Positions 42,649-64,000 of a stretch of 64,000 nucleotides of DNA are shown here, piece by piece. The notes below the pieces were generated by a model. The model made no database searches, was not told where the DNA came from, and saw nothing but the letters and a program-made list of their open reading frames with translations. Each line of letters starts with the position of its first letter. Positions within the stretch are counted from its first letter, which is position 1. The translations under genes were made by a program, and so were the position numbers. This DNA is from an uncultured Clostridia bacterium (GTDB lineage Bacteria > Acidobacteriota > Aminicenantia > UBA2199). The stretch lies in contig CAYZNT010000009.1 in the NCBI GenBank assembly GCA_964479735.1, positions 41,349-105,348 of the forward strand, in the 5' to 3' direction.

Positions 42649-43296
42649 ATGGACAAGTCCGAAGCGATTGCCCGGATCGAGGCTTTTCTGCTCTCCCTGG
42701 ACTCGCTTGCGCTCCGCGGGCTGGTCTCCGGGCTGCTGGCCACCCTGTCCGCTCAGGACATCGCGGCGCACCTGCTCCAGCCGGCCCTGGAGCGGATCGG
42801 CGAGAAGTGGCAGCGCGGGGAGCTGGCCCTGTCGCAGGTCTACATGAGCGGCAAACTGTCCGAACAGTTGCTTGACTCGTTCCTGCCCGCCGCTGACCCG
42901 CAGCGGAAATCGGAGCCGAAGATGGCGATCGCCGTCCTCGAGGACTACCACTTTTTAGGCAAGCGCATCGTTCATGCACACCTGCGCGCGTCGGGCTTCG
43001 AGCTGTTGGATTACGGGCGCCGTGAGGCTGGGGATCTGGCCGAAAAGGCGGGGCACGACCGTCTGCAGGTGCTGCTGATCTCTACCCTGATGTACCCGTC
43101 GGCTCTCCGCGTTCGTGAGGTACGCGCCCGCCTCGATCGCCTGGCGCCCCAGGTGCGCATCCTGGTCGGAGGGGCGCCGTTCAACCTGGACGAAACCCTG
43201 TGGCGGTCGGTGGGAGCCGATGCCATGGGCCGGGACGCCGCCGCGGCGGCCCGCCTGGTCGTCCAGCTGGGCGTGAAGGCCCCGGGGGCGGCATGA
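42649..43296 (+). CDS. Cobalamin-binding protein (B12-binding_2 helical cap plus B12-binding Rossmann domain; MtbC/MtaC-like or CarH-sensor-like)
   Basis: DYHFLG (the DxHxxG lower-axial-ligand motif), a downstream S-x-L and GG motifs (LLISTLM...ILVGGAPF), 215 aa. Confidence 0.75.
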   Translation: MDKSEAIARIEAFLLSLDSLALRGLVSGLLATLSAQDIAAHLLQPALERIGEKWQRGELALSQVYMSGKLSEQLLDSFLPAADPQRKSEPKMAIAVLEDYHFLGKRIVHAHLRASGFELLDYGRREAGDLAEKAGHDRLQVLLISTLMYPSALRVREVRARLDRLAPQVRILVGGAPFNLDETLWRSVGADAMGRDAAAAARLVVQLGVKAPGAA

Positions 43297-44321
43297 CCTC
43301 GCTGGAGCGCGTATTGACCGCGCTGGGACATCGTGAACCCGACCGGGTGCCTCTTTTCCTGTTGCTGACCATGCACGGTGCGAAGGAGCTGGGGCTTTCC
43401 ATCCGGGAATACTATTCCCGGGGGGAGAACGTGGCCGAAGGGCAGGTGCGCCTGCGCCGCAAGTATGGGCATGACTGCCTCTATCCCTTTTTCTACGCTC
43501 CTCTGGAAATCGAGGCCTGGGGCGGAGAGGTGATCTTCCGAGACGACGGCCCGCCCAACTCCGGGGAGCCGTTCATCTCGTCGCCACGGCAGATCAGCCA
43601 TCTGGAGCCGCCGCGGGTCAGAGATGCAAAGTGCCTGTCCAAGGTGTTGCAGGGCATACGCCTGCTGAAGGAACGAGTGGGGGACCAAGCCCCCATCATC
43701 GGCGTGGTCATGTCGCCCTTCTCCCTGCCGGTCATGCAGATGGGGTTCGAAGGCTATCTCGATCTGATGATGACCCGCCCCCGGCTCCTGCACCGGCTGC
43801 TGCGGCTGAACGAGGCCTTTGCCGTGGAGTGGGCCAACGCGCAATTGGCGGCGGGGGCGACGGCCATCTGCTATTTCGACCCGCTCTCCTCACCCTCCAT
43901 GGTCCCCCGCGACCTCTTCCTGAAAACCGGCTACCGCGTCGCCCGGCGCACGCTGCCCGCGATCCGGGGGGCGATCGCCGTTCACCTGGCCTCCGGGCGC
44001 AGCCTGCCGATCATCGACGACGTCATCCGGGCCGGGGCGGCGGTGGTCGGTACCAGCAGCGTGGAGGACCTGGCCGAGGTGAAGGCGGCCTGCGCGGGGA
44101 GAATGACCGTGCTGGGCAACCTCAACGGCATCGAGATGTGCCGTTGGTGCCCGGCGGAGGCGGAGGAGGCCGTGCGCAACGCCATCGCCAAGGCGGCCGC
44201 GGGAGGAGGCTTCATCCTCTCGGACAACCACGGCGAGATACCCTTTCAGGTGGGCGACGACGTGCTTGCGGCCATCGCCGAGGCGACGCGGCGACACGGC
44301 ACCTACCCCATCGGGGAATGA
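43293..44321 (+). CDS. URO-D-like methyltransferase (MtaA/CmuA family; methylcobamide methyltransferase II-like)
   Basis: 342 aa URO-D fold (...YPFFYAPLEIEAWGGEV...VMSPFSLPVMQMGFEGY...). ATGA overlap with the corrinoid protein gene. Confidence 0.7.
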   Translation: MTSLERVLTALGHREPDRVPLFLLLTMHGAKELGLSIREYYSRGENVAEGQVRLRRKYGHDCLYPFFYAPLEIEAWGGEVIFRDDGPPNSGEPFISSPRQISHLEPPRVRDAKCLSKVLQGIRLLKERVGDQAPIIGVVMSPFSLPVMQMGFEGYLDLMMTRPRLLHRLLRLNEAFAVEWANAQLAAGATAICYFDPLSSPSMVPRDLFLKTGYRVARRTLPAIRGAIAVHLASGRSLPIIDDVIRAGAAVVGTSSVEDLAEVKAACAGRMTVLGNLNGIEMCRWCPAEAEEAVRNAIAKAAAGGGFILSDNHGEIPFQVGDDVLAAIAEATRRHGTYPIGE

Positions 44322-44328
44322 TCTCGGC

Positions 44329-45636
44329 ATGGATCGGCCGGTTCGGCTGCTGATTTGCGGGAATTTCCGCGGCGAAGCGCTGGCCGCCCTCTCCGCGGGC
44401 GACTGGCACGGGGTGCGGGTGGACTTCTTTCCGGCAGCGTGCGGGAAGCGCGCCCTGTCCGAGAGGGACCTGGCCGCCTGCGCGGGCGGGATCGACGACG
44501 GCGAGGAGGGTTTGATCGTGGGCTCCGCTTGCCTGGCCCAGGTCGGGCACCTGGACGGCCCGCTCTCCCGGTTCGGGCTCCTGCGGCAGGAGCTTTGCTT
44601 CCACATGGTCGCCGGCAGGGACCTGGTCCACTCCTATACCGCTTCGGGCGCTTACCTGGTCACTCCGGGCTGGCTGGCCGACTGGCGGGAGAACGTCGCC
44701 CGTTGGGGAGACCCGGAGGCGGTCCGGGCCATGTTCGCGGAATCGGTCAGCCGCCTCCTCCTGCTGGATACCGGAGTCGATCCGCGCAGCCGCGCGCACC
44801 TGGCCGACATGTCCGCCTGGATCGGCCGGCCTGCGGAGGCCCTCCCCGTCGGGATCGATTTCTTCCGGATGTTCCTGCAGAACGAAATCGGCAGGCTGCG
44901 CTTGAAAAGACGGGGAGCTCCTCCCATCGACGTCCCGGAGCCGGAGCCGGCACGGGCGGCCGACTACGCCATGGCCCTGGAACTGCTGGGCGACATTCCG
45001 CGCACGGAGCGGGAGGAAGCCGTGATCACCCGCATCGCCGACTTGTTCAAGATGCTCTTTTCGACCGGCTATTTCCGCATATTGACGATCGTCGAAGGTC
45101 GGCCGGGTCCGCTTTGGTCATCTCCGCCGCTGCCCGATGCGGCGGAGGTGCGGCAGGAGCTGGAGGCGTTTGATCTGCCGTTCGAGATGCTCGAAGACCG
45201 CCAGGGATTCCGTCTCCGGGTCGGCTCTTCCGAAGGCACTCTGGCCGTGATCGAGGCGGGCGGCATCTCTTTCCCTGAGCACCTGCCGCGCTACTTGAAC
45301 CTGGCCCTGGGGCTGGTCAAGCTGATCGTCCTGGCCCTGCAGAACGCCCGCGTCTTCGAGCAGCGCGAGAAGCTGCTGGCCGAGCTGCAGGGCGCCCTCG
45401 GCAACGTGAAGCGCCTCAGCGGCCTGCTGCCCATCTGCGCCAACTGCAAGAAGATCCGCGATGACCAGGGCTACTGGCAGCAGGTGGAGACGTACATCGC
45501 CGAGCATTCGCAGGCCGACTTCACCCACGGCATCTGCCCCGACTGCATGGACATTCTCTACCCGGGTGCGAGCAAACGCATCAGGCGCTCCAAGAAGGGG
45601 GGGGGAGAGGGGTTGCCGGGAGACGATACCGAATAG
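44329..45636 (+). CDS. Sensor-like protein paralog A: N-terminal Cys-rich domain (possibly DUF1638-like), central coiled-coil/PAS-like region, and a C-terminal conserved Cys4 motif domain
   Basis: 435 aa. The C-terminus is LSGLLPICANCKKIRDDQGYWQQVETYIAEHSQADFTHGICPDCMDILYPG. There is no HisKA/HATPase, GGDEF, EAL, HTH or REC domain. Confidence 0.65.
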   Translation: MDRPVRLLICGNFRGEALAALSAGDWHGVRVDFFPAACGKRALSERDLAACAGGIDDGEEGLIVGSACLAQVGHLDGPLSRFGLLRQELCFHMVAGRDLVHSYTASGAYLVTPGWLADWRENVARWGDPEAVRAMFAESVSRLLLLDTGVDPRSRAHLADMSAWIGRPAEALPVGIDFFRMFLQNEIGRLRLKRRGAPPIDVPEPEPARAADYAMALELLGDIPRTEREEAVITRIADLFKMLFSTGYFRILTIVEGRPGPLWSSPPLPDAAEVRQELEAFDLPFEMLEDRQGFRLRVGSSEGTLAVIEAGGISFPEHLPRYLNLALGLVKLIVLALQNARVFEQREKLLAELQGALGNVKRLSGLLPICANCKKIRDDQGYWQQVETYIAEHSQADFTHGICPDCMDILYPGASKRIRRSKKGGGEGLPGDDTE

Positions 45637-49376: not shown

Positions 49377-49415
49377 CTTAACCCGGAATTAACCGTCTTT
49401 TCATCCCTCGTTAAC
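49377..49415 (+). promoter_or_regulatory. Phased (C/A/G)TTAAC direct repeats at 49378, 49389 and 49411 (11 and 22 bp apart): candidate Pho-box array upstream of porin-pstSCAB-phoU
   Basis: cTTAACccggaaTTAACcgtcttttcatccctcgTTAACcc. Confidence 0.45.
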
Positions 49416-49473
49416 CCATCGCGCGCATCATGGGGCCTGCCGGCAAACGGCGAATTCCTACAAGGAGAAATGG

Positions 49474-50493
49474 ATGAAAAAGACGATTCTCTTCGTGCTG
49501 GTCGCAGCGGCCCTGATGGCGGTATTCGCCTCTCCGCTGAAGGCCGGTGTCTCGGCCTACGCGTTCGGCGACTACTACTTCGTGCTGAAGCAGCACAACC
49601 CGGCGCTGGAGGACCTCAACGGCTTCTGGCTGCGCCGCATCTACATCACCTACGACGCCGACATCTCCGACAAGCTGAAGGCGCGCGCCCGGCTCGAGAT
49701 GCACAGCGACGCCAAGTTCGGCTCCTCGCAGCTGTCCATCACCCCGTTCGTCAAGGACGCCTACATCGCCTACCAGTTCGCGCCGCTGCACAAGCTGCAG
49801 CTCGGCATCCAGGAGTCCCTCACCTGGGCCAACGTCGAGAAGTTCTACGGCTACCGCCACCTCGAGAAGACGGCCTTCGACCTCTACAAGGTGCGCTCCT
49901 CCCGCGACTTCGGCGTCTCCCTGGGCGGGTCGCTGGACAAGGCCAAGACGTTCAACTACACGGTGCTGTTCGGCAACTACTCTTCCTATCGCCAGGAGAC
50001 GGACAAGTACAAGCAGGTGGCCTTCCGCTTCACCGTCAACCCGAGCGCCCAACTGATGCTCGAGGCCTCGGCGGATTTCGCCACCGTGTCGGCGGTCAAG
50101 AAAACCTCGCTGTTCCAGGGCTTCGCCGGCTACCAGGGCGACTGGGGCCGCATCGGCCTCAACTACGGCCAGGAAAAGGTGCAGGAAGACGGCAAGGCCG
50201 ATGTCGATTTCGGCGTCTTCTCCACCTTCGCCGTGGTCAAGCTCAACAAGAAATTCGAGGCCGTGGCCCGCTACGACCTGACCACCAAGCCGCAGCCCTA
50301 CGGCCAGTCCGACTTCATCGTCATCGAGAAGGGGTACAAGACCAACCTGTTCATCCTCGGCCTGGGCTGGAACGTGCACCCCAAGTTCCAGATCATGCCC
50401 AACCTGAAAATGGTCACCTACCAGGCCAACGACCTCGGCCTCAAGCCCGACGGCGACACCTACTTCAACGTGACCTTCTACTATCAGTTCTGA
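49474..50493 (+). CDS. Outer-membrane phosphate-selective porin (OprO/OprP-like)
   Basis: Signal peptide, beta-barrel-like sequence, C-terminal ...YYQF. It lies immediately upstream of pstS. AAGGAG RBS is present. Confidence 0.7.
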   Translation: MKKTILFVLVAAALMAVFASPLKAGVSAYAFGDYYFVLKQHNPALEDLNGFWLRRIYITYDADISDKLKARARLEMHSDAKFGSSQLSITPFVKDAYIAYQFAPLHKLQLGIQESLTWANVEKFYGYRHLEKTAFDLYKVRSSRDFGVSLGGSLDKAKTFNYTVLFGNYSSYRQETDKYKQVAFRFTVNPSAQLMLEASADFATVSAVKKTSLFQGFAGYQGDWGRIGLNYGQEKVQEDGKADVDFGVFSTFAVVKLNKKFEAVARYDLTTKPQPYGQSDFIVIEKGYKTNLFILGLGWNVHPKFQIMPNLKMVTYQANDLGLKPDGDTYFNVTFYYQF

Positions 50494-50507
50494 AAAAGGA
50501 GGAATCC

Positions 50508-51329
50508 ATGAAACTCATGCGCATCCTTTCGATGGTCCTGCTGGCCGGCGGCCTCCTGACCGCCGCCGCCCCGGAGAAGATCGTGGTCGACGGCTCCACC
50601 ACCGTGGGCCCCATCGCCAAAGCCTTCGCCGAGCACTACATGAAGCTGAATCCGGGAGTCAACATCACCGTGTCGGAGTCCGGTTCCGGCAACGGGGCCA
50701 AATCGCTGATCAACAAGACCTGCCAGGTGGCCACCATGTCGCGGCTGCTGAAGCAGAACGAGTACGAGGCGGCCGTGCACTCCGAGATCCTCCCCGTGGT
50801 GCACACCGTGGCCCTGGACGGCATCGCCATGGTCGTCCATCCCGGCAACCCCGTCGCCAAGCTGAGCCTGGCCGAGGTGAAGGCCATCTACCTCGGCAAG
50901 ATCCGCAACTGGAGCCAGCTGGGCGGCCCCAACGCGGCCATCGTCATCATTTCCCGCGACACCAACTCCGGCACCTACGAAACCTTCGAGGGCAAGGTGA
51001 TGAAGGGCGAGAAGATCGCCAAGAACTGCGAGTACGTCGGTTCCAACGGCGCCATCCGCCAGCGCGTGCAGAGCACCCCGGCGGCCATCGGGTACATCGG
51101 CATCGGCTTCATTGACAACACCGTCAAGGCGCTGGCGGTCGACAACGTCGTGCCGACCGTGGACACGGTCAAGAATGGCTCCTATCCCATCGCCCGCCCC
51201 CTCTACATGGTCACCAACGACTATCCCAAGATGGGTTCCCACCTCTACCGCTTCGTCAACCTCTACCTCACCAAGAAAGGCCACGCGATGATCGAGGAGA
51301 TCGGCTTCATCCCGGTCACCTCCTACTGA
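50508..51329 (+). CDS. pstS: Phosphate ABC transporter substrate-binding protein PstS (periplasmic, copy 1)
   Basis: Signal peptide, VDGSTTVGP, SRDTNSGTY, 273 aa. Confidence 0.9.
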   Translation: MKLMRILSMVLLAGGLLTAAAPEKIVVDGSTTVGPIAKAFAEHYMKLNPGVNITVSESGSGNGAKSLINKTCQVATMSRLLKQNEYEAAVHSEILPVVHTVALDGIAMVVHPGNPVAKLSLAEVKAIYLGKIRNWSQLGGPNAAIVIISRDTNSGTYETFEGKVMKGEKIAKNCEYVGSNGAIRQRVQSTPAAIGYIGIGFIDNTVKALAVDNVVPTVDTVKNGSYPIARPLYMVTNDYPKMGSHLYRFVNLYLTKKGHAMIEEIGFIPVTSY

Positions 51330-51344
51330 GCCGAAGAGCGTCCG

Positions 51345-52487
51345 GTGAGCGACCACGCCAGCAACCTGATCCTGAGCCGGGGGGCCAGCCGCCTGCGGCG
51401 GCTGGCCTCGCTGGCCGCCCGCGGCTTCCTGCTGGCCGTGACCGCCGCCTCCATGGTGGCGGTGCTGCTGATCATCGTCTACATCGCCCGCGACGCCATC
51501 CCCTTCTTCAAGCTGCGCGGGGTGGGCGAGTTCCTCGGCCGCAACGCCTGGTATCCCTCCGGGCACCCCGCCGAATTCGGGGCGCTGGCCATCTTCGCCG
51601 GCAGCGCCATCGTCACCCTGGGGGCCATGGCGGTGGCCGTGCCGCTGGGCATCGCCGCCGCCCTCTGCCTGAGCGACGTCCTGCCCTTCTCCGTGCGCCA
51701 GGTGGTCAAGCCGGTCGTCGAAACCCTGGCCGCCCTGCCCTCGGTGGCCTACGGCTTCTTCGCCCTGGTCGTCTTCGCCCCGTTGCTGCAGAACCACGGC
51801 GGACGGGTGTTGTCCCTGATGCTGTGGCTGGCCGGGCTCCCGCTCGGCCTGCTGCTGATCTACGTGTTGTCGGGGCTGTCGGCGCGCGGAGTGCGCGAGG
51901 ACGTGGCCCCGGCGGTCAAGTGGACGATGGCCGCCGTGCTGACGGCCGCCTTGCTGCGCGGCCTGGCGGTGCTGGGCGGGCGCCTCGACAGCCTGGTCAT
52001 CGCCTCGGGCGCCAACGCCTTCAACGTGTCGGTCATCCTGGGCGTCATGGCCCTGCCGACCATCGTCTCCGTATCGGAGGACGCCCTGCAGGCGGCCGGC
52101 CGCGAGCTGCGGGAGGGATCCTATGCGCTGGGCGCCACCCGGGCCGAGACCCTCTTCCGGGTCGTCATTCCGGCCGCTTCCAGCGGCATCGTCGCCGCCG
52201 TTATCCTGGGGGTCATGCGCGCCGTGGGCGAGACCATGGTGGTGTGGATGGCCTCGGGCAACGCCGCCCAGCTGCCCCAGCCCTGGTACAACCTGTTCAG
52301 CCCGGTGCGCACCCTGACCGCCACCATCGCCGGCGACATGGGAGAGGCCGACCAGGTGACCGGGTCGGCCCGCTACCACGTGCTGTTCGCCATGGCCCTG
52401 CTGCTGCTGCTGATCTCGCTGGCGGCCAACCTGGCCTCGGAATGGATCGTGCGCCGGCAGCGCCGGCGGCTCTCGGGACGGAGCTGA
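51345..52487 (+). CDS. pstC: Phosphate ABC transporter permease PstC (copy 1)
   Basis: Multi-TM protein with the EAA-like loop (LGATRAETLFRVVIPAA), 380 aa. Probable GTG start. Confidence 0.88.
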   Translation: MSDHASNLILSRGASRLRRLASLAARGFLLAVTAASMVAVLLIIVYIARDAIPFFKLRGVGEFLGRNAWYPSGHPAEFGALAIFAGSAIVTLGAMAVAVPLGIAAALCLSDVLPFSVRQVVKPVVETLAALPSVAYGFFALVVFAPLLQNHGGRVLSLMLWLAGLPLGLLLIYVLSGLSARGVREDVAPAVKWTMAAVLTAALLRGLAVLGGRLDSLVIASGANAFNVSVILGVMALPTIVSVSEDALQAAGRELREGSYALGATRAETLFRVVIPAASSGIVAAVILGVMRAVGETMVVWMASGNAAQLPQPWYNLFSPVRTLTATIAGDMGEADQVTGSARYHVLFAMALLLLLISLAANLASEWIVRRQRRRLSGRS

Positions 52488-52488
52488 C

Positions 52489-53835
52489 ATGGACCTGAAG
52501 ACCCGCCACTCCCTGGATCGCTCGCTGACCGGGGTCTCGGTGCTGGCCATCGTCCTGATGGCCCTGTCGCTGCTGGTGCTGCTGGGGCCGATCGTCGTCC
52601 GCGGCGCCCGCGCCTTCGTGTTCCGGGCCACGGTCGAGCACCGCCGGCTGATGGCCGAGCAGTTCGACCGCGGCGACCGCGCCGATCTGGCCGCCGAGGC
52701 GGCGATCGCGCTCCGGGCGCGCCAGCCGGTCTACGACATGCTGCAGCGGTTCGATGCCCAGTTGGACGAGATGGAGGGCTCCCGCCGCACCGCCCTGCGC
52801 CGCGAGTTCCGCGATGTGAAGGACGGGCTGCGCGCCCTGCTTGGTCCGTTGCCCGGCGACGACCCCCCGGTGCTGCTGCGCCAGCAGTACGGCCAGACCC
52901 GCTGGGACCGCGCCCGGGTGAAGCTCGGCCAGCTGCTCTTCGTCGAGCGCTGGGACTATTCCGACCGCAGCCGCATGGGCCGCAAGGTGCTGGAGCCCCG
53001 CCACCGGCTGTTCGCCGGCACCGCCCTCGAGCCGCTCTTCCCCCACCTGGAGAAGCACCTGGCGGAGATGCTCCGACCGCGGCTGACTTTCTACTGGCGC
53101 TTCATCAGCGACGTCTCTCGCGACGCCCACTTCTTCGGCGGCATCGGCCCGGAGGTGCTGGGCACCTTCTACCTGGCCCTGGGAGCGATGATCTTCGCCA
53201 TCCCCTTCGGGGTCATCGCCGCCATCTACCTCAGCGAATTCGCCGGCAGCGGCCGGCTGGTCTCCCTGCTGCGCGTCTTCGTCTCCACCCTGGCCGGGGT
53301 GCCGAGCATCGTCTTCGGGCTGTTCGGGCTGGCCTTCTTCATCCACTCCCTGCGCGTTTCGCCCTCCAAGAGCGTCCTGGCCGGCTCCATCACCCTGGCC
53401 CTGCTGGTCTTGCCGACCATCATCCGCGCGGCGGAGGAGGCCATCAAGGCCGTGCCCCAGACCTATCGCGAGGCGGCACTGAGCCTGGGCGCCTCCCCGC
53501 TGCGCATGGTGCTGACGGTGCTGCTGCCGGCGGCGCTGCCGGGCATTTTGACCGGGGTGATCATCTCCCTGGGCCGGGCCGCCGGCGAGACGGCGCCGAT
53601 CATCTTCACCGCCGCGGTCTCCGTGGGCAACCCGCTGCGGCTGTGGGAAACGCTTTCGCAGCCGACCCCGGCGCTGTCCTGGAACATCTACAACCTGGCC
53701 ACCGAGCACGAGGCCCTCGACGAGATCCGCCACGTGCAGTTCGGAATGGTGCTGACCCTGGTGCTGCTGGTGCTGCTCCTCAACCTGGCGGCCATCCTGA
53801 TCCGCGCCCGGCTATCCAGAAAAATGAGAGGCTGA
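52489..53835 (+). CDS. pstA: Phosphate ABC transporter permease PstA (copy 1), with an about 165-aa extracytoplasmic insertion after TM1
   Basis: 448 aa versus about 290 for canonical PstA. The C-terminal 280 aa align with PstA ([29 protein letters not shown]). Confidence 0.85.
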
Positions 53836-53837
53836 CG

Positions 53838-54659
<822 letters not shown>

Positions 54660-54670
54660 GGAGGCACCCC

Positions 54671-55330
54671 ATGGTCCTGCACCTGCACCGGGAGATCGAG
54701 AAACTGAAGAAGCAGATCGCGCTGCTGGCCGGCATGGTCGAAAAGCGCGTGGCCGACGCCGTGCGGGCCGCCGAGACCGATGACTTTTGCCTGGCCGAAC
54801 GCGTCCGGGAGGGAGACGCCGACATCGACCGAACCGAGGTGGAGGTGGAGGAGGAGTGCCTCAAGGTGCTGGCCCTGCACCAGCCGGTGGCCATCGACCT
54901 GCGCTTCATCGTCGCCGTGCTCAAGATCAACGGCGACCTGGAGCGCATCGGCGACGAGGCGGTCAACATCGCCGGCCGCGCCCTGCGCATCCACGACTTC
55001 CCGCGGCCGGAGTGCCGGCTCGAACTGGCCCCCCTGGCCGCGCGCGTTCAGCAGATGCTGAAGGACAGCCTCGACGCCCTGGTCAACATGGACGCCTCCC
55101 GCGCCCACATCGTGCGCCAGGCCGACGACGACGTCGACGAACTGGTGCGGCGACAGTTCGAGCGGGTGAAGGCCAGCATGCAGGTGCATCCCGACCAGGT
55201 CGACCCGCTGGTCGAGTATCTGCGCATCTTCCGCTACCTCGAGCGCATCGCGGACCACGCCACCAACATCGCCGAGGACGTCCTTTACATGGTCGAGGGC
55301 GAGATCGTGCGCCACAAGGAAGAGGCCTAA
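54671..55330 (+). CDS. phoU: Phosphate signalling complex protein PhoU (copy 1)
   Basis: 219 aa with two PhoU repeats (E(x)xxD motifs). Confidence 0.9.
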   Translation: MVLHLHREIEKLKKQIALLAGMVEKRVADAVRAAETDDFCLAERVREGDADIDRTEVEVEEECLKVLALHQPVAIDLRFIVAVLKINGDLERIGDEAVNIAGRALRIHDFPRPECRLELAPLAARVQQMLKDSLDALVNMDASRAHIVRQADDDVDELVRRQFERVKASMQVHPDQVDPLVEYLRIFRYLERIADHATNIAEDVLYMVEGEIVRHKEEA

Positions 55331-55477: not shown

Positions 55478-55532
55478 GTTAACCCCGTATTAACAGTCCG
55501 CACAACGAAAATTAACCGGCGCAGCCTATGAT
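55478..55532 (+). promoter_or_regulatory. Phased TTAAC repeats (55479, 55491, 55512) occupying the -35 position, plus a TATGAT -10 (55527-55532) that ends 6 nt before the ATG at 55539: candidate PhoB-type activated, leaderless promoter
   Basis: ggTTAACcccgtaTTAACagtccgcacaacgaaaaTTAACcggcgcagccTATGATgccggcATG. Confidence 0.45.
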
Positions 55533-55538
55533 GCCGGC

Positions 55539-56729
55539 ATGAGCCTGCATGCCATCCCCATCGCCTACGTGGCTGTCCTCAGTCTTTCGCTGCTGGTGCT
55601 GGGCGCATACACCGGGCTGACCGCGGCCTTTCGCCGCGGCCGCCGGGTACGTCTGCCGCTGAACCAGCAGTCCTACCCGCGTGTCTCCATACTCAAGCCG
55701 CTGCGCGGGGTGGACGACGACCTGGAATCCAACCTGGAGTCCCTCTTCCGCCTGGACTATCCCGATTACGAAATCCTGTTCGCCGTCGACGCCCCGGACT
55801 GCGCCGAGGCGGTCACGGCGCGAACGGTGGGCGGCCGGCACCCCGGCGTCTCCTGCCGCATCGCGGTCACCGGCCACGACTCCGACCGCAATCCGAAGAT
55901 CCACAAGCTGGAGGCGCTGGAGTCACGGGCGAGCGGTGAATTCTTCTGGATCAGCGACGCCAACGTCCGGGTGGCGCCGGACACCCTGAAACGGCTGGTG
56001 GCCGAGTGCCTGAGCCACGGCGCCAAGATCGTTTTCTCGCCCATCCGCGCGACCGGCAGCCGCACCCTGGGGGCGGTCATCGAGAACGCCTACATCAATT
56101 TTTTCATGTCCGGCAACGTCCTGCTGGCATGGACCCTGCTGCGCCAGCAGATCAGCATCGGCAAGTCGATCCTGCTCGAGCGCCGGGCCCTGGAGCGGTT
56201 CGGCGGCTTTGCCTACTTCCGCGACCACCTGGCGGAGGATTTCGTCATGAGCGAGTCGTTCGAGTCCAGCCGCTTCCGCGTATCCAGCAATTTCACCTGG
56301 GTGACCACCGTCAACCGGCGCACCTCCGTGCGCGGCTTCTACCAGCGCCTGGCACGCTGGGCCGTGCTGCGCTTCCGCCTGAAGCCGGCCGTGTACCTGC
56401 TGGAGGTGCTGATCAACCCGTTGGCGCTGGCGATGCCGGCGCCGCTGCTGTGGGGCCGGACCGGCATGCATCTGCTGCTGGGCGCCTTCCTGATCCGGAC
56501 GACGGTCGAGTACGTCAACTTTCTGCTTCTCAACAGCGAGGACCGGCGCCGGATCTGGATCCACCTGGCCTTCCCCGCGGCCATGGTCCTGCAGGATCTC
56601 GTGCTGCTGGCCGTCTACCTGACCCCCTTTTTCCGGCGCACGGTGAACTGGCGGGGCGGCCGAATCACCGTCGGTCGGCACACCCTGATCGCCAACGCCC
56701 AGGACAGCCTGCTCTGCGATGGCGCCTGA
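55539..56729 (+). CDS. GT2/GT21-family glycosyltransferase (ceramide glucosyltransferase-like; Pgt-like processive glycolipid synthase candidate)
   Basis: N-terminal TM, ILKPLRGVDDDLESNLESLFRLDYPDYEILFAVD, DxD-type motifs, the C-terminal QRLARW ((Q/R)xxRW) motif, and multiple C-terminal TM helices. Confidence 0.7.
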   Translation: MSLHAIPIAYVAVLSLSLLVLGAYTGLTAAFRRGRRVRLPLNQQSYPRVSILKPLRGVDDDLESNLESLFRLDYPDYEILFAVDAPDCAEAVTARTVGGRHPGVSCRIAVTGHDSDRNPKIHKLEALESRASGEFFWISDANVRVAPDTLKRLVAECLSHGAKIVFSPIRATGSRTLGAVIENAYINFFMSGNVLLAWTLLRQQISIGKSILLERRALERFGGFAYFRDHLAEDFVMSESFESSRFRVSSNFTWVTTVNRRTSVRGFYQRLARWAVLRFRLKPAVYLLEVLINPLALAMPAPLLWGRTGMHLLLGAFLIRTTVEYVNFLLLNSEDRRRIWIHLAFPAAMVLQDLVLLAVYLTPFFRRTVNWRGGRITVGRHTLIANAQDSLLCDGA

Positions 56730-58095
56730 GAACCGCGTTCCGGCCGGCGACCGCCGCGAGCGCCCGGGCTCGGCCTGGGTGGTTTCCCTGCTGATGGGGC
56801 TCGGCCACCAGAGGGCCGCCTACCCGCTGCGCGATTCCGCCGTGGGCGGGGTGCTGGTCTACGGCTCGCGGCGCACCACCCCCCCGCAGGAGTACCGGTT
56901 GTGGCGGAGGATCCGCCGGCTCTACTACATCTCGTCGCGGGCCGGGCGCATCCCGCTGGTGGGGAAGTACCTCCTGGCGGTGCTGCTCGCGCTGGAGCAC
57001 ATCCGGCCCTATTACCCGCGGCGGGACCAGGCCCGCCCCAACCGGGCCGCGCGCACCCTCGACTGGATGATCCGCCGCCGCGGCCTTTGCGAGGGCCTGG
57101 TCCAGCGGGTCGCCCAACGACCGTTGCCGGTGGTGCACACCTTCTATGCCACCGCCATCGCCCTCGATCGCGCGAACCTCGCCGGGGTGGTGAACTACCT
57201 GCTGATCTGCGACGCCGATTTCAACCGCGTCTGGGTGCCCCTCCATCCCGAGCGAAGCCGCCTGCGCTACCTCGCCCCCTGCACCCAGGTGGGCCTTCGC
57301 CTGCGCTCCTACGGGGTTCCCGCCGAGAATGTCTTCATGACCGGTTTTCCGCTGCCGAAGGAGAACATCGGCGACGAGCGGCGGCTGGAGATCCTGCGCG
57401 CCGACCTCTTCGAGCGGCTGCTGCGCCTCGACCCGCGGCGCAAGTTCTTCGCCTACCACCGCCATTCCGTCCAGCACTGGCTGGGGGGCGCCAGCGTGCC
57501 CCCGTCTGGGCCTGACCGGTTCACCGTGATGTTCGCCGTCGGCGGCGCGGGCGCCCAGGCGGAGATGGTCGAAGGCATCCTGGCCAGCCTCCGGACCCGC
57601 ATCCTGGCCGGCCGGGTCCGCCTGCTGCTGTCGGCCGGAATCCAGCGGCGCGTGTTCGAGCGGATGATGCGGGCGCTGCACGACCAGGGCCTCCAGGAGC
57701 AGCTGGGACAAGGCGTCGACATCCTTTTCGACACCGAGGTCGACGGCTACCTCGACAAGTTCAACCGGGCCCTGCGAAAAACCGACGTTTTGTGGACCAA
57801 GCCCAGCGAGCTCTCGTTCTACTGCGGCCTGGGCATCCCGATCCTGCTGGCACCATCCATCGGCACCCACGAGGAGCTGAACAAGCGCTGGCTGCAGGAG
57901 ATCCACGCCGGGATCAAGCCGCCCGGCCCGGTGGAATGCTGCCACGAGTGGCTCTTCGACCTGCGCGACAACGGGCGCCTGGCGGAGGCGGCCTGGGACG
58001 GATTCCTCAAGGCGCGCAAGCTCGGCACCTACCGCATCGCCGCCCTGCTCCGCGGCGAGCCCCTGCCGGACAGCATGTCGCCGCTGGAGCAGTGA
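56719..58095 (+). CDS. MGDG-synthase/UgtP-like glycosyltransferase (GT28-like) candidate
   Basis: N-terminal LLMGLGHQRAAYPL (the GxGH motif of the MGDG_synth domain) and a C-terminal GT-B-like region. Overlaps the upstream GT by 11 nt. Confidence 0.5.
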   Translation: MAPENRVPAGDRRERPGSAWVVSLLMGLGHQRAAYPLRDSAVGGVLVYGSRRTTPPQEYRLWRRIRRLYYISSRAGRIPLVGKYLLAVLLALEHIRPYYPRRDQARPNRAARTLDWMIRRRGLCEGLVQRVAQRPLPVVHTFYATAIALDRANLAGVVNYLLICDADFNRVWVPLHPERSRLRYLAPCTQVGLRLRSYGVPAENVFMTGFPLPKENIGDERRLEILRADLFERLLRLDPRRKFFAYHRHSVQHWLGGASVPPSGPDRFTVMFAVGGAGAQAEMVEGILASLRTRILAGRVRLLLSAGIQRRVFERMMRALHDQGLQEQLGQGVDILFDTEVDGYLDKFNRALRKTDVLWTKPSELSFYCGLGIPILLAPSIGTHEELNKRWLQEIHAGIKPPGPVECCHEWLFDLRDNGRLAEAAWDGFLKARKLGTYRIAALLRGEPLPDSMSPLEQ

Positions 58096-58205: not shown

Positions 58206-58865
58206 TCAGGCCTCTTCCGTGTGGCGCACGATCTCGCCCTCGATCATGTAGAGAACGTCCTCGGCGATGTTGGTGGCGTGGTCGGCGATGCGCTCGAGGT
58301 AGCGGAAGACGCGCATGTATTCGATGAGGATGTCGACCTGGTCGGGATGCTCCCGGATGCCGCTTTTGACGGCCTCGAAGCGGGCGTGGGCGAGCTCGTC
58401 GATCTCGTCGTCGGCCTGGCGCACCGCGTGGGCGCGGGCGGCGTCCAGGTTGACCAGGGCGTCGAGGCTCCCCTTGAGCATGCGCTGCACGCGCTCGGCC
58501 AGGGGGGCGAGGTCGATGGGGCTGGCGGGGGGGGGATAGGAGCGGATGCGCAGGGCGCGGCCGGCGATGTTGACCGCCTCGTCGCCGATGCGCTCCAGGT
58601 CGCCGTTGATCTTGAGCACGGCGACGATGAAGCGCAGGTCGATGGCCACCGGCTGGTGCAGGGCCAGCACCTTGAGGCACTCCTCCTCCACGTCCACCTC
58701 GGCCTGGTCGATGTCGCTGTCTCCCAGGCGCACGCGCTGGGCCAGCTCGCCGTCGCGCGTCTCGATGGCCCGCACGGAGTCGGCCACGCGGTGCTCGACC
58801 ATGCCGGCCAGCAGCACGATCTGCTTTTTCAACTTGTCGATTTCGCGGTGCAGGTGCAGGACCAT
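58206..58865 (-). CDS. phoU: PhoU (copy 2), about 85% identical in protein to copy 1 and in inverted orientation
   Basis: MVLHLHREIDKLKKQIVLLAGMVE..., 219 aa. GAGGAGG RBS is present. Confidence 0.9.
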   Translation of the reverse strand: MVLHLHREIDKLKKQIVLLAGMVEHRVADSVRAIETRDGELAQRVRLGDSDIDQAEVDVEEECLKVLALHQPVAIDLRFIVAVLKINGDLERIGDEAVNIAGRALRIRSYPPPASPIDLAPLAERVQRMLKGSLDALVNLDAARAHAVRQADDEIDELAHARFEAVKSGIREHPDQVDILIEYMRVFRYLERIADHATNIAEDVLYMIEGEIVRHTEEA

Positions 58866-58876
58866 GGGGGGCCTCC

Positions 58877-59635
58877 TCAGCCGAAGCGGCCGCTGATGTA
58901 GTTTTCGGTCAGTTGCTGCCGGGGGTGGGTGAAGATCTCGCCCGTCTCCCCGAACTCGACCAGCCGGCCCAGGTACATGAACCCGGTGTGGTCGGACGCG
59001 CGCGCCGCCTGCTGCATGTTGTGGGTGACGATGACGATGGTGTATTCCCTCTTGAGCTCCTGCATCAGCTCCTCGATGTGGGCCGTGGCGATCGGGTCCA
59101 GGGTGGAGCAGGGCTCGTCCAGGAGCAGGATCCGGGGCTTCAGCGGAAGCAGCCGGGCGATGCACAGCCGCTGCTGCTGCTCCAGCGACAGCTTGAGCGC
59201 CGACTCGCGCAGCCGGTCCTTCAGGTCGTCCCACAGCAGCACGCCGCGCAGCGAGCGTTCGACGATCTCGTCGTATTCCCGGCGCGCGGCCAGCTGGTGG
59301 ATCTCCAGCCCGAAGATGATGTTGTCCTGCACCGACAGCGGGAAGGGGTTGGGGCGCTGGAAGACCATGCCCACCCGCTCGCGGAGCTCCAGCAGGTCGG
59401 TGTCCGGGGCCAGGATGTCCACTCCGTCCATGAGCACGCGGCCGCTCGTGCGCACCCCGTCGATCAGGTCGTTCATGCGGTTGAAGACCCGGAGCAGCGT
59501 GCTCTTGCCGCAGCCGCTGGGGCCGATCAGCGCCGTCACCCGGCGGGTGGGAATGCGCAGCTCGACGTCGATGAGGGCCTGGAAATTCCCGTAGAACAGG
59601 TTGAGCGCCTGGGTTTCGATGGCGATGTCGTCCAT
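58877..59635 (-). CDS. pstB: PstB paralog 2a: intact Walker A/B, Q- and H-loops, but degenerate ABC signature (LSLEQ instead of LSGGQ)
   Basis: [46 protein letters not shown]. Confidence 0.88.
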   Translation of the reverse strand: MDDIAIETQALNLFYGNFQALIDVELRIPTRRVTALIGPSGCGKSTLLRVFNRMNDLIDGVRTSGRVLMDGVDILAPDTDLLELRERVGMVFQRPNPFPLSVQDNIIFGLEIHQLAARREYDEIVERSLRGVLLWDDLKDRLRESALKLSLEQQQRLCIARLLPLKPRILLLDEPCSTLDPIATAHIEELMQELKREYTIVIVTHNMQQAARASDHTGFMYLGRLVEFGETGEIFTHPRQQLTENYISGRFG

Positions 59636-59636
59636 G

Positions 59637-60404
59637 TCAGCCGAACTTCCCGGTGATGTAGTCGGAGGTGCGCGGGTCGCGGGGGGCGGTGAACATTTTC
59701 CCCGTCTGGTCCACCTCCACCATTTCGCCCATCAGGAAAAACGCCGTGCGGTCGCCGGTGCGCGCGGCCTGGGCCACGTGGTTGGTCACCAGCACGATGG
59801 TGTAGCGCCGCTTCAGCTCCAGCAGCGTCTCCTCGATGCGAGCCGTCGAGATCGGGTCGAGACCGGAGGTGGGCTCGTCGAACAGCAGCACCTCGGGTTC
59901 GCCGGCCAGGATGCGCGCCATGCACAACCGCTGCTGCTGGCCGCCGGAGAGGTTCATCGCCGGCGTGTGCAGGCGGTCCTTCACCTCCTCCCACAGGAAG
60001 GCGTCGCGCAGGGAGCGCTCCACCGCCTCGTCCAGCCGGCGGCGGTCGCGGACTCCCTGCATGCGCAGCCCGTAGACGATGTTCTCGAAGATGGAGATGG
60101 GCAGCGGAAAGGGGAGGGCGAAGACGATGCCGACGCGGCGCCGCAGCGCTTCGACCTCCAGGCTGCGGATGTCGGCTCCGTCCAGCTCGATGCGTCCTTC
60201 CTGGCGAAACGCGGGGTGCAGATCGTTGAGCCGGTTGAGGGCGTTCAGGAAGGAGGACTTGCCGGAGTTGGCCGGGCCGATGACGGTGAAGACCTCGTTG
60301 GCGCGGATCTCCAGCTCCAGGCCGCGCAGGGCGATGGTGTCGCCGAAGCGCAGCGTCAGGCCGCGGACGGCGATTTTGGGGGGGGTGGGGGGGCCGGCTA
60401 CCAT
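59637..60404 (-). CDS. PstB paralog 2b: intact signature LSGGQQQRL and Walker B, but Q-loop Gln replaced (VFALP) and H-loop shifted (VTNHV)
   Basis: [46 protein letters not shown]. Confidence 0.85.
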   Translation of the reverse strand: MVAGPPTPPKIAVRGLTLRFGDTIALRGLELEIRANEVFTVIGPANSGKSSFLNALNRLNDLHPAFRQEGRIELDGADIRSLEVEALRRRVGIVFALPFPLPISIFENIVYGLRMQGVRDRRRLDEAVERSLRDAFLWEEVKDRLHTPAMNLSGGQQQRLCMARILAGEPEVLLFDEPTSGLDPISTARIEETLLELKRRYTIVLVTNHVAQAARTGDRTAFFLMGEMVEVDQTGKMFTAPRDPRTSDYITGKFG

Positions 60405-61243
60405 TTTTTTCTCCGCCGGAAGCGGGAGCGCACGAGGATGGCGGCCAGGTTCAGCAGCAGCACCAGCGCCAGCAGGACCAGCGCCGTTCCGTAGCGGACG
60501 TCTTCGGCAATGCCGGGCACCTGGGTGGAGATGACGTAGAGATGGTAGGGCAGGGCCATCGTCTGGTCGAAGAGGGTTTGCGGCAGGCGCGGCAGGTAGA
60601 AGGCGGCGACGGTGAACAGGATCGGCGCGGTCTCCCCGGCGGCGCGGCCGAGGCCCAGGATGGTGCCGGTCAGGATCCCCGGCAGGGCGTGCGGCAGCAC
60701 CGAGTGGCGGACGGTCTGCCAGCGGCTGGCGCCCAGCGACAGCGAGACGAGCCGGAACGACTGCGGCACGCTCTCCAGCGCCTCGCGCGTCGAGGTGATG
60801 ATCACCGGCAGGATCATGATGCCCAGGGTCAGCGAGCCGGCCAGGATCGACGCCCCGAAGCCGAAGAAGGTGACGAAGATGCCCAGGCCGAAGAGGCCGT
60901 ATACCACCGAGGGCACGCCGGCCAGGTTGACGATGGCCAGTTTCACCAGCCGGGACAACGCCGAGTCGCGGGAGTACTCCACCAGGTAGATGGCGGCCAG
61001 CACCCCGATCGGCACGGCGAAGAGCACCGCCCCGCTCACCAGGTAGAGCGTACCCAGGATGGCCGGAAGGATGCCGCCGGCGGTCATGCCGGCGCGGGGC
61101 ATGGTGAAGAGGAAGGACAAGCTGATGGCGCTGGCGCCCTTGGCCACGATGATGCCCAGGATGACCAGCACCGGCAGCACCACCAGCAGGGTGGCCAGGA
61201 AGAGGATGGAGAAGGCGATGGCCTGGGTCGTGCGCGGGCTCAT
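60398..61243 (-). CDS. pstA: Phosphate ABC transporter permease PstA (copy 2, canonical length)
   Basis: About 281 aa, [40 protein letters not shown]. Confidence 0.88.
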   Translation of the reverse strand: MSPRTTQAIAFSILFLATLLVVLPVLVILGIIVAKGASAISLSFLFTMPRAGMTAGGILPAILGTLYLVSGAVLFAVPIGVLAAIYLVEYSRDSALSRLVKLAIVNLAGVPSVVYGLFGLGIFVTFFGFGASILAGSLTLGIMILPVIITSTREALESVPQSFRLVSLSLGASRWQTVRHSVLPHALPGILTGTILGLGRAAGETAPILFTVAAFYLPRLPQTLFDQTMALPYHLYVISTQVPGIAEDVRYGTALVLLALVLLLNLAAILVRSRFRRRKKW

Positions 61244-61245
61244 GG

Positions 61246-62124
61246 TCACCTGCGGGAGCGGTGCAGGTAGAGGTCGGCCACGCCGTTGACCAGGAAAGTG
61301 ATGACGAACAGCACGATGCCGATGGCGAACAGGGCGGCGTAGTGGGGGCCGCCCTGCACCGACTCGCCCATCTCGGCGGCGATGGTGGCGGTCAGGGTGC
61401 GCACCGGCTGCAGGATGCTGCGCGGCATCAGGGCGGCATTGCCGGTGACCATCATCACCGCCATGGTCTCGCCGATCACCCGGCCGATGCCCAGCATCAC
61501 CGCCGCCACCATGCCGGGGCGGGCGGCGCGGGCCACAATGCGCCAGGTGGTCTGCCACCGGGTGGCGCCCATGGCCACGGCGGCCTCGCGGTACTGGCGG
61601 GGGACGGCGGTGATGGCGTCCTCGGCGATGGAGACGATGGTCGGCATGGCCATGAAGGCCAGGGTGATCGAGCCGGTGAGGGCGGTGAGGCCGGTGGGCA
61701 GCTGGAAGAGTTCCCGGATCCACGGCCCCAGGGTGATCATGCCGATGAAGCCGATGACCACGGAGGGGATCGCCGCCAGCAGCTCGATGCCCGCCTTGAG
61801 CGTCTCCTTGAGCCTCGGCGGGGCGATCTCGGCGATGAACAGGGCGGCGGCGATGCCGATGGGAACCGACAGGGCGGCCGCCCCCAGGGTGACCAGCAGC
61901 GAGCCGACGATGAGCGGCAGGATGCCGAACCGGGGCGGGTGGGAAATGGGATACCAGCTGGTGCCGAAGAGGAAGTCACCCACCCCCTCGTGGCCGAAGA
62001 GGGCCAGCCCCTCGCGCAACAGGAAGAGGAAGATGAGCAGCACGAAGACGATGGAGAAGACGCCGGAGAGGAGAATGGCCTTCTCGACCAGCCACTCCCT
62101 CGGTTTGCGCGGCAGCAGCCCCAT
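61246..62124 (-). CDS. pstC: Phosphate ABC transporter permease PstC (copy 2)
   Basis: 292 aa, AMGATRWQTTWRIVARAARPG. Confidence 0.88.
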   Translation of the reverse strand: MGLLPRKPREWLVEKAILLSGVFSIVFVLLIFLFLLREGLALFGHEGVGDFLFGTSWYPISHPPRFGILPLIVGSLLVTLGAAALSVPIGIAAALFIAEIAPPRLKETLKAGIELLAAIPSVVIGFIGMITLGPWIRELFQLPTGLTALTGSITLAFMAMPTIVSIAEDAITAVPRQYREAAVAMGATRWQTTWRIVARAARPGMVAAVMLGIGRVIGETMAVMMVTGNAALMPRSILQPVRTLTATIAAEMGESVQGGPHYAALFAIGIVLFVITFLVNGVADLYLHRSRR

Positions 62125-62137
62125 CGCTCCGCGGCCC

Positions 62138-63010
62138 CTACCGGCGCACGGGCACGAAATCGAGCTCGCCCACCAGCTTCTGCCCCTCGGGGGAGAGGAC
62201 GAAATCGAGGAACTGCGCCGTCAGGCCGTGAGGCTGGCCCTTGGATACCATCAGCAGCGGCCGGGAGATCGGGTAGCTCTTGTTGATGACGTTTTCCAGG
62301 GTGGGGGCGACGTGGGGCGCGCCGGGCTCCAGGGAGACGTGCAGGGCTTTTTGCCGGGGGCTGATGTACCCCATTCCGTAGTAGCCGATCGCCCCGGGGT
62401 TTTGCGCCACCTCGTCGGCGATGGCCTGGGAACTGGGCAGCATCAGGGCGCCGGGAGCGAACTCCTCCTTGCCGTCGGCCCGGCCATGGCGCAGCACGTG
62501 CTCCTTGAAATAGAGGTGGGTGCCGGAGTTGACCTCGCGCGACAAGACCACGATCTGCCGGTCGGCGCCGCCGACGTCCTTCCAGTTGGTGATGGCGCCG
62601 GAGAAGATCTGCGCCAGCTGGCCCATGGTCAGCTCCGACACGGGGTTGGCGGGGTGGACCACCACGGCCAGGCCGTCGAGCGCCACCTCCAGCTGCTTCG
62701 GCTCGATGCCGTTCTTGCGGGCCATGGCGATCTCGTCGGGCTTCATGTCGCGGGACAATTCGGCGATGTCGCAGGACCCGGCGATGAGGGAGGCAATGCC
62801 GGTGCCCGAGCCGCCGCCGGTGACGGCCACCGACAGGTCGGGGTGCTTCTGCATGAAGGCCTCGGCCCACGCCTGGCCCAGGTTGACCATGGTGTCCGAG
62901 CCCTTGATCTGGATCGAGGTGGCGACGTCTCCCCGGCGGCCGCAGCCGGCGGCGGCCAGGGAGGCGGTGGCGAGAAGCACCGCCAGGGTGAACCGTCCGT
63001 TCCTTTTCAT
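62138..63010 (-). CDS. pstS: Phosphate-binding protein PstS (copy 2, lipoprotein form)
   Basis: Lipobox LAAAGCG, IKGSDTMVNLGQAWAE, SREVNSGTH, about 290 aa. Confidence 0.88.
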   Translation of the reverse strand: MKRNGRFTLAVLLATASLAAAGCGRRGDVATSIQIKGSDTMVNLGQAWAEAFMQKHPDLSVAVTGGGSGTGIASLIAGSCDIAELSRDMKPDEIAMARKNGIEPKQLEVALDGLAVVVHPANPVSELTMGQLAQIFSGAITNWKDVGGADRQIVVLSREVNSGTHLYFKEHVLRHGRADGKEEFAPGALMLPSSQAIADEVAQNPGAIGYYGMGYISPRQKALHVSLEPGAPHVAPTLENVINKSYPISRPLLMVSKGQPHGLTAQFLDFVLSPEGQKLVGELDFVPVRR

Positions 63011-63054
63011 GCGCAGGCTCCTTGTTCGGGAAATTCTGGAAGTCAATCTGGAAT

Positions 63055-63114
63055 GTTAACATGTTATTAAAAAAGGGTTAAGGGGGGGTTAAGGCCCGGT
63101 TAAGAAACGGTTAA
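63055..63114 (+). promoter_or_regulatory. Array of six (G/A)TTAA direct repeats at exact 11-bp phasing (63055, 63066, 63077, 63088, 63099, 63110): candidate triple Pho box in the pstS2 / DUF47-pit divergent intergenic region
   Basis: GTTAAcatgttATTAAaaaaggGTTAAggggggGTTAAggcccgGTTAAgaaacgGTTAAt. The array ends 9 bp before the -35. Confidence 0.55.
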
Positions 63115-63122
63115 TTTCCGGG

Positions 63123-63151
63123 TTGACCCGGGAAGGGCTTTCTGGTAAGAT
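63123..63151 (+). promoter_or_regulatory. Sigma70-like promoter (TTGACC, 17 bp spacer, TAAGAT) for DUF47-pit
   Basis: TTGACC at 63123-63128 and TAAGAT at 63146-63151. AGGAGG RBS lies before the ATG at 63200. Confidence 0.5.
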
Positions 63152-63199
63152 CGCACTTCCACTCTTCATCCGCCTCGGGAATCCGGCCAGGAGGACTCC

Positions 63200-63844
63200 A
63201 TGTTCAAATTCCTGTTGCCCAAAGAAGAGCAGTTCTTCGAGTTGTTCGACAGGATGGGCGCCAACCTCGTCGAAGGCGTGCAACTGCTCAACCAGATGCT
63301 CGACCCCGGCGCGCCCGCCTGCACGCCCCAGGGCCGAAGCGAGCTGGCCCTGCGGGTGAAGACGATCGAGCACCAGACCGACGGCGTGGCCCACCAGATC
63401 ATCTCCCGGCTGCACAAGACCTTCGTCACCCCCATCGACCGCGAGGACATCTTCCACCTGGTCGGCCGGCTCGACGACGTGCTCGACCTGACCGAGGGCG
63501 CCGCCTCGCGCATCGAGCTCTACCAGCCCAAGGAAGTGCCGCACGAATCGGTGGAGCTGGGCAAGGTGCTGCTGGAGAGCGCCCGCCTGGTGCAGGACAT
63601 GGTCCACCTGCTGAGCGACATGAAGAAATCGGCCCGCATCCTGGAACTGGCGGTGGAGATCAACCGCCTGGAGCACGAGGCCGACCTGCTTCGCCGCGGC
63701 ACCCTGGCGCGGCTTTTCCGGGAGGAAAAGGACGTATTCGAGCTGATCAAGTGGAAGGACATCCAGGAATACATGGAAAAGGCCACCGACCGGTGCGAGG
63801 ACGTGGCCAACATCACCGAGGGCATCGTGCTGGAAAACACCTGA
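63200..63844 (+). CDS. DUF47 family protein (PhoU-like regulator typically paired with Pit; TIGR00153-like)
   Basis: 214 aa helical protein immediately upstream of pit. Confidence 0.8.
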   Translation: MFKFLLPKEEQFFELFDRMGANLVEGVQLLNQMLDPGAPACTPQGRSELALRVKTIEHQTDGVAHQIISRLHKTFVTPIDREDIFHLVGRLDDVLDLTEGAASRIELYQPKEVPHESVELGKVLLESARLVQDMVHLLSDMKKSARILELAVEINRLEHEADLLRRGTLARLFREEKDVFELIKWKDIQEYMEKATDRCEDVANITEGIVLENT

Positions 63845-63854
63845 CGGGGCCGGC

Positions 63855-64000
63855 ATGCTGCTCGTCATTTTCATCATCTTCGTGGCCCTGGCCTTCGACT
63901 TCACCAACGGCATGCACGACGCGGCCAATTCCATCGCCACCATCGTCTCCACCCGGGTGCTGACGCCGCGCCGGGCGGTCATCTGGGCCGCCTTCTTCAA
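63855..64000 (+). CDS. pit: Inorganic phosphate transporter PitA / PHO4 family (partial, N-terminus only)
   Basis: MLLVIFIIFVALAFDFTNGMHDAANSIATIVSTRVL carries the conserved FDFTNG.HD.AN.IAT motif. It runs off the window end. Confidence 0.85.
   Translation, partial: MLLVIFIIFVALAFDFTNGMHDAANSIATIVSTRVLTPRRAVIWAAFF

Follow-up and report, generated by a model that had tools for sequence, protein, structure and literature searches.

The array of 11-bp-phased direct repeats spanning positions 63055–63114 of the window (the whole 64,000-nucleotide stretch of DNA analysed here) is very probably an ordinary Pho operator of pstS2, bound by a neighbouring PhoB-like regulator. This reading draws on the statistics of the phased sites, their association with phosphate genes, the adjacent PhoB/PhoR-like pair, the footprint in orthologous promoters and the agreement with Pho boxes described before, which together lend support to the earlier note's proposal of a PhoB-family regulator array. 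The array reveals no new mechanism. For an uncultured high-GC bacterium known solely from metagenomes, the analysis predicts, in testable form, which genes belong to the phosphate-starvation regulon: two pst operons, a glycosyltransferase cassette probably making phosphorus-free glycolipids, and a putative outer-membrane protein. It also shows that the TTAAC-type Pho box of cyanobacteria occurs widely ahead of pstS genes in environmental genomes, so that Pho regulons would become predictable straight from metagenome assemblies.

All six (G/A)TTAA repeats noticed previously were recovered: GTTAA, ATTAA and four further GTTAA start at 63055, 63066, 63077, 63088, 63099 and 63110, with a period of exactly 11 bp. 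Read along the minus strand, it consists of four TTAACC followed by TTAATA and TTAACA. The pattern RTTAA-N6-RTTAA-N6-RTTAA has four overlapping matches in the window, all within this array, versus 0.00 in 100 dinucleotide-preserving shuffles. TTAAC-N6-TTAAC with at most one mismatch occurs nine times in the 64-kb window (0.05 expected) and TTAAC pairs spaced by 22 bp occur six times (0.01 expected), all of them confined to three intergenic regions (the array, site 2 and site 3), which also hold 14 of the 19 GTTAA pentamers of the window. The motif scan put forward in the earlier note was run on 64 kb of the genome and approximately 4 kb past the window end; within the window, every phased TTAAC pair falls in these three intergenic regions, with the two pst operons and the glycosyltransferase cassette downstream.

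Sites 2 and 3 keep the phase exactly, with units at 0, +11 and +33 and a degenerate unit at +22 (Table 1). The recurrence of TTAAC at these sites had been reported before and stands for the starts at 49378, 49389, 49411, 55479 and 55512, whereas the start given as 55491 is actually 55490. As in a Pho box, the array consists of six direct repeats with an 11-bp period, four of them perfect TTAACC, separated by variable linkers, and it lies upstream of phosphate-acquisition genes, among which pst is the most conserved target. Units 5 and 6 are in phase with the core operator, and we estimate the chance of two such in-phase 4/5 matches at ~2e-4. They may act as extra low-affinity sites, a role that could limit pstS2 induction.

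Table 1. Coordinates of the arrays, predicted promoters and genes (window positions unless a contig handle is given).
Feature	Coordinates	Strand	Details
Core operator (predicted), four perfect TTAACC units, 11-bp spacing	63076–63114	-	Unit starts 63114, 63103, 63092, 63081; linkers gtttc, gggcc, ccccc unrelated
Units 5 and 6, in phase, weaker	63054–63070	-	TTAATA 63070–63065, TTAACA 63059–63054; overlap predicted pstS2 -10/+1
Predicted pstS2 -10, TAACAT	63061–63066	-	9 nt after fourth TTAACC
Alternative pstS2 -10 (less likely), CAGAAT	63033–63038	-	21 nt from start of unit 6; read from sequence
Near-consensus sigma-70 promoter of DUF47-pit (predicted), TTGACC-17-TAAGAT	63123–63151	+	TTGACC 63123–63128, TAAGAT 63146–63151; consensus match at 9/12 positions
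Site 2, upstream of pstS1 operon	49378–49431	+	TTAACC 49378, TTAACC 49389, degenerate TTCATC 49400, TTAACC 49411, 9 nt, CATCAT 49426–49431
Site 3, upstream of GT21-DUF6938	55479–55532	+	TTAACC 55479, TTAACA 55490, degenerate CACAAC 55501, TTAACC 55512, 9 nt, TATGAT 55527–55532
pstS2 operon	58206–63010	-	pstS2 (62138–63010), pstC2, pstA2, two pstB, phoU2; Pfam and NCBIfam
Putative outer-membrane protein-pstS1CAB-phoU1 operon	49474–55330	+	Pfam and NCBIfam; first gene without family
GT21 glycosyltransferase-DUF6938 cassette	55539–58095	+	Pfam
DUF47 (PhoU_div) and 5' part of pit (PHO4 family)	63200–64000	+	DUF47 63200–63844; pit from 63855, runs off window; Pfam
HAMP-HisKA-HATPase kinase, 581 aa, with OmpR-family regulator	L032:3522–5395	-	Pair convergent with pit; kinase ~1 kb past window end
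OmpR-family regulator, 238 aa	L118:78–794		Regulator and kinase together L118:78–2536

Orthologous promoters and the orientation of the array

A metagenome scan with PstS2 retrieved 80 loci with 57–71% identity, from which 68 non-redundant upstream regions were used for footprinting. Pairs of TT[AT]A[CT] in the sense of pstS number 43, 27 and 21 at spacings of 11, 22 and 33 bp in these regions (approximately 1.1 in shuffles), compared with 3, 6 and 0 for antisense pairs and 0 in coding sequence. Chains of at least three units are found in 16 of the 68 upstream regions, against 0.16 expected, and the longest of them has four units, which makes the six-unit chain of the window the longest found. 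Across 653 kb of these loci read on both strands, 16 of the 27 chains with at least three units lie sense-upstream of pstS, seven are the same arrays read antisense and two of the remaining four lie upstream of another gene that precedes pstS. We observed four-unit arrays upstream of an uncharacterised gene preceding pstS at L057:1207–1262 and L083:1613–1651, an example of this type being TTTACC, TTTACC, TTAATT, TTAACA, 9 nt and TATACT.

L001 was the single locus found to share the divergent pstS/DUF47 layout of the window, with DUF47 78% and PstS 79% identical. Its units TTAACG, TTCATC, TTAACC and TTAACA are in register with the four TTAACC of the window, although the linkers differ, and it has no counterpart of units 5 and 6. 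At L042, GT21 and DUF6938 (303–2758) are followed in one row by pstS, and TTAACC, TTCACG, ATTATT and TTAACA lie upstream of GT21, which indicates that the box of the glycosyltransferase cassette is conserved too. The peaks at 11, 22 and 33 bp, the chains and the L001 register are the conservation in orthologous promoters that characterises a Pho box. A genome-collection search with the DUF47 protein returned mostly distant relatives (55–63% identity), a set unsuitable for footprinting by itself.

About half of the 68 orthologous pstS promoters have no phased array, including those of the closest PstS2 relatives (L037–L045). In L037, L040 and L043–L045, where PstS2 is 66–69% identical, pit lies directly upstream in the same direction and the promoter reads TTGACA-17-TAAAAT; a consensus promoter lacking a phased array suggests that pstS control differs there.

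The last four units of the array read GGTTAA on the plus strand and hence TTAACC on the other. There is no ambiguity about the target gene at sites 2 and 3, because the neighbouring upstream gene runs in the same direction, and here the units read TTAACC or TTAACA in the sense of the downstream gene. Since the same sense reading holds at the 68 orthologous pstS promoters, the array at 63054–63114 is oriented for pstS2 and not for DUF47-pit, and it most likely serves mainly pstS2 on the minus strand. This orientation departs from the initial framing of the array as abutting a -35 element.

We place the predicted -10 hexamer of pstS2 at TAACAT. The distance from the start of the preceding unit to the start of the -10 hexamer is 15 nt at pstS2, at site 2 (CATCAT), at site 3 (TATGAT), in L001 (GAACAT) and at a second site of L057 (TATACT), and offsets of 15+11n to a -10-like hexamer form the commonest class in the 68 orthologous promoters. 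AACATG is conserved in the alignment of the window with L001. The sequence 17 nt upstream of TAACAT is ACCCCC and contains no -35-like hexamer, nor is one present at either of the two other window promoters (sites 2 and 3). No canonical minus-strand promoter was found in 62950–63250, as expected if the pstS2 promoter is activator-dependent. The fourth unit, a 9-nt gap and an nAnnAT hexamer recur in L001 as well as at pstS2, site 2 and site 3, matching Pho-box geometry. The most consistent model is therefore a classic activator-dependent Pho promoter, in which four units, predicted to hold two dimers, would be followed by a 9-nt gap and a -10 hexamer.

CAGAAT is a less likely -10 hexamer of pstS2. 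The corresponding offset class of 10/21/32 is present in orthologs such as L057 and L105, but with CAGAAT the spacing would be out by half a helical turn relative to sites 2 and 3 of this genome. We also considered TTGACT (63046–63041) as a -35 element of pstS2 and rejected it, as there is no -10 hexamer 17 nt downstream.

The adjacent regulator pair and known Pho boxes

Contigs with DNA identical to the window extend the locus beyond its end, where pit is followed by convergent kinase and regulator genes. The regulator gene lies upstream of the kinase gene, and their stop and start codons overlap. The best NCBIfam match of the regulator is PhoB (TIGR02154, 236 bits, below the equivalog cut-off of 296). 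The E. coli PhoB structures 3T72/1GXP are the best match of its DNA-binding domain (E=2e-17), in which the recognition helix (RTVDVHI) and the VRG of the wing are conserved. The top NCBIfam matches of the kinase are PnpS, WalK and PhoR, all below cut-off (249 versus 334 bits for PhoR); kinase homologs carry the IMG label PhoR, and several of those named at NCBI come from Aminicenantes or Acidobacteriota MAGs. Based on the rank of the best hits and on location, we describe the two proteins as a PhoB/PhoR-like pair and regard them as the probable phosphate regulators. The predicted promoter of the regulator gene is TTGACT-17-TAGGAT, and the 77 bp available upstream of this gene contain no TTAAC unit.

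The PhoP core site of Bacillus subtilis reportedly comprises four TT(A/T/C)ACA-like hexamers with 11-bp periodicity. The PhoB site of Desulfovibrio vulgaris, AGGTTACAGCATAGTTAC, has been validated by EMSA (PMC6456213). The units of the window resemble the Desulfovibrio GTTACA sites, and many orthologous pstS promoters carry TTAACA or TTTACA units, as in these two species. In contrast to both, the predicted box of the window has C instead of A at position 6.

Pho boxes are generally made of 11-nt direct repeats in variable number, with a species-dependent consensus, and are bound head-to-tail by dimers of PhoB-family proteins (PMC4415409, PMC2275107). The SphR box of Synechocystis PCC 6803 is the 8-bp CTTAACCT, present upstream of pst operons in at least three tandem copies separated by linkers of 3 bp (PMC1906773). 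The units of the window, (a/c)TTAACC(g/c), likewise have an 11-bp period and lie upstream of pst; aTTAACCg, cTTAACCg, cTTAACCc and cTTAACCc each match CTTAACCT at 6–7 of 8 positions. The two systems differ in that the linkers of the window are G+C-rich and its four units are accompanied by two extra ones over -10/+1. The host, unlike Synechocystis, is not a cyanobacterium with SphS/SphR orthologs, since the nearest labelled relatives of its DUF47 protein and kinase are Aminicenantes/Acidobacteriota MAGs. The array would work like an SphR-type box yet outside the SphR regulon.

The consensus had been presented as lineage-specific, a description that does not hold: nTTAACCn is essentially the Synechocystis box, phased units of the TTAAC/TTTAC type are widespread upstream of metagenomic pstS, and the motif matches a Pho-box type already known from cyanobacteria. 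A literature search for a Pho box in Acidobacteria found nothing, and searches with the bare motif strings returned unrelated primer sequences only.

The array shares with the E. coli Pho box the 11-bp head-to-tail repeats that replace the -35 element at a fixed short distance from the -10 hexamer, and pst as the core target. The neighbouring regulator, in turn, conserves the RTVDVHI helix and the wing arginine of E. coli PhoB. The core differs, however, being TTAACC instead of CTGTCAT, and the last 8-bp unit lies 8 nt from the -10 hexamer, compared with 10 nt in E. coli, where pstS, for example, has two boxes. The direct repeat units of Streptomyces PhoP (DRus) are 11 nt long and variable in number; the core is bound first and weaker adjacent units follow, and some units lie over the -10 element with negative action (PMC2275107). 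Their consensus, G(G/T)TCAYYYR(G/C)G, is unlike that of the window. Units 5 and 6 are comparable to these -10-overlapping units and to B. subtilis PhoP, a repressor at high levels.

In the mechanism that we favor, for which regulator binding, the points where transcription starts and the sign of regulation are all predicted from the DNA, phosphate limitation would cause the PhoR-like kinase to phosphorylate its PhoB-like partner, and head-to-tail regulator dimers would line up on one side of the double helix, filling the 11-bp-phased TTAACC units. A -35 element would be replaced by the four perfect units, and bound regulator would recruit RNA polymerase to TAACAT, 9 nt downstream, turning on pstS2-pstCA-pstBB-phoU2. 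The same module of four units, 9 nt and a -10 hexamer would drive the GT21 cassette and the operon of the putative outer-membrane protein and pstS1. As units 5 and 6 are weaker and lie over -10/+1, their occupancy may require high levels of the regulator.

The DUF47-pit promoter and other readings of the array

The TTGACC-17-TAAGAT promoter described in the earlier note is present on the plus strand and is the sole sigma-70-like promoter in 62950–63250, but the gap from the last GTTAA to TTGACC is 8 nt and not 9. It is kept in L001, and distant relatives have TTGACT/TTGACA-17 without TTAA units; most relatives with a recognisable DUF47 promoter (L005–L014) have no TTAA units there. As the promoter is near-consensus and kept in relatives lacking the units, it should be able to work without an activator and probably needs none. 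With its own good -35 element, divergent DUF47-pit would probably be constitutive, or mildly hindered by occupancy of the array.

We further observed that the Aminicenantes DUF47-pit promoters of L005, L009, L011, L012 and L014 share TTGACA-N17, and that the -10 of those in L009, L011 and L012 lies within or beside a short palindrome, GATAATTATC, which may be an operator for another regulator.

A tentative refinement, which we consider possible though not probable, is that the array works in both directions, activating pstS2 and repressing DUF47-pit by crowding its -35/UP region. It modifies the Pho-operator explanation and is no competitor on the identity of the array. Relative to the pit promoter, the array extends from about -44 to -82, and TCAACC (63126–63121), a 5/6 match to the unit located 12 nt from unit 1, overlaps the pit -35 element. 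However, TCAACC is shifted by one base relative to the phase of the array, and L001 does not conserve it. We take the orfA-pit genes of Sinorhizobium meliloti to be a DUF47-pit gene pair. A passage of PMC3131613, citing Bardin et al., describes their repression on phosphate starvation, in line with such a refinement. We are rather doubtful about an extended form, a two-way switch in which a regulator filament on all six units would turn pstS2 on and DUF47-pit off through TCAACC while units 5 and 6 cap induction when the regulator is very abundant, and in which the module of four TTAAC(C/A) units, 9 nt and a -10 hexamer would be the common form of the Pho box in many uncultured phyla, with the CTGTCAT of E. 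coli as the outlier.

The array could instead act mainly on the plus strand, with the regulator bound upstream of TTGACC activating pit under phosphate limitation. The 8 nt between the end of the array and the -35 element would accommodate this, two GTTAAG and one GTGAAG are in phase with the -35 element of the DUF47 gene in L002, and Pit regulation is species-dependent according to a review (PMC4415409). We nevertheless judge this unlikely: the units are antisense to DUF47-pit, whereas the orthologs and sites 2 and 3 are strongly sense-biased, and the promoter, with its 9/12 match to the sigma-70 consensus, is kept in relatives that have no units. The array and the -35 element are also separated by 8 nt in the window but by 2 nt in L001, a difference of about half a helical turn, which argues against a conserved activating geometry and against describing the array by its proximity to that element.

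Direct repeats spaced by 11 bp are used by many OmpR-family proteins. A different regulator of this family could therefore bind the array, as could an AT-preferring nucleoid protein in this 68% GC genome, and both the sub-equivalog PhoB score of the regulator and the further sensor kinases encoded in the window leave room for another binder. We find this very unlikely, since all three sites lie ahead of phosphate genes, the motif equals experimentally defined Pho boxes and the closest two-component genes, those next to pit, encode a PhoBR-like pair; the linkers are G+C-rich and the tract overall is not AT-rich.

TRF detects a period-11 array (2.6 copies, 83% matches), but its weak score of 37 indicates that this is not a recent slippage repeat, and head-to-tail copies similar over the whole unit, as in a minisatellite, are not seen. 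We therefore rejected a functionless tandem duplication or intrinsically curved DNA without a protein partner as exceedingly improbable, because conservation is confined to the 6-nt cores, the linkers being unrelated, and two other promoters, as well as the orthologs of other organisms, contain the core in the same phase and orientation. An Rfam search of the intergenic region that contains the array matched no family; the lone match was sub-threshold, by chance, and fell inside the pstS2 coding sequence.

Gene content of the window

The gene names used by the earlier note were borne out by Pfam for PstS2, DUF47, two full pst operons and the GT21 glycosyltransferase. The pstS2 product has a lipoprotein-like signal, MKRNGRFTLAVLLATASLAAAGC. 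The call of a porin ahead of pstS1 is plausible, as the product of the first gene of this operon (49474–50493) has a signal peptide and ends in YYQF, as outer-membrane barrels typically do. Since this protein matched no Pfam or NCBIfam family, we do not name it a phosphate porin; tblastn against all fetched loci found no homolog.

The GT21 protein is HpnI-like, below cut-off, and GT21-DUF6938 has its own predicted four-unit Pho box. This box and the synteny with pstS suggest phosphorus-free glycolipid synthesis under phosphate starvation.

The pstS2 operon contains a tandem pair of pstB genes (ABC ATPase, 58877–60404), whereas the pstS1 operon has a single pstB. The 3' end of pstB1 together with phoU1 (54492–55328) and phoU2 together with the 3' end of the adjacent pstB (58208–59044) form an inverted duplication with 85–88% DNA identity, which flanks the GT21-DUF6938 cassette and points to duplication or gene conversion, of fairly recent date, between these operons.

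The remainder of the window is ordinary chromosome, encoding ThrRS, PheT, RNase Y, DXS, PolA and PAS-domain kinases. Genes for a URO-D family protein (44266–45636) and a DUF1638 protein (43200–44321) adjoin upstream of MutY and are unrelated to the array.
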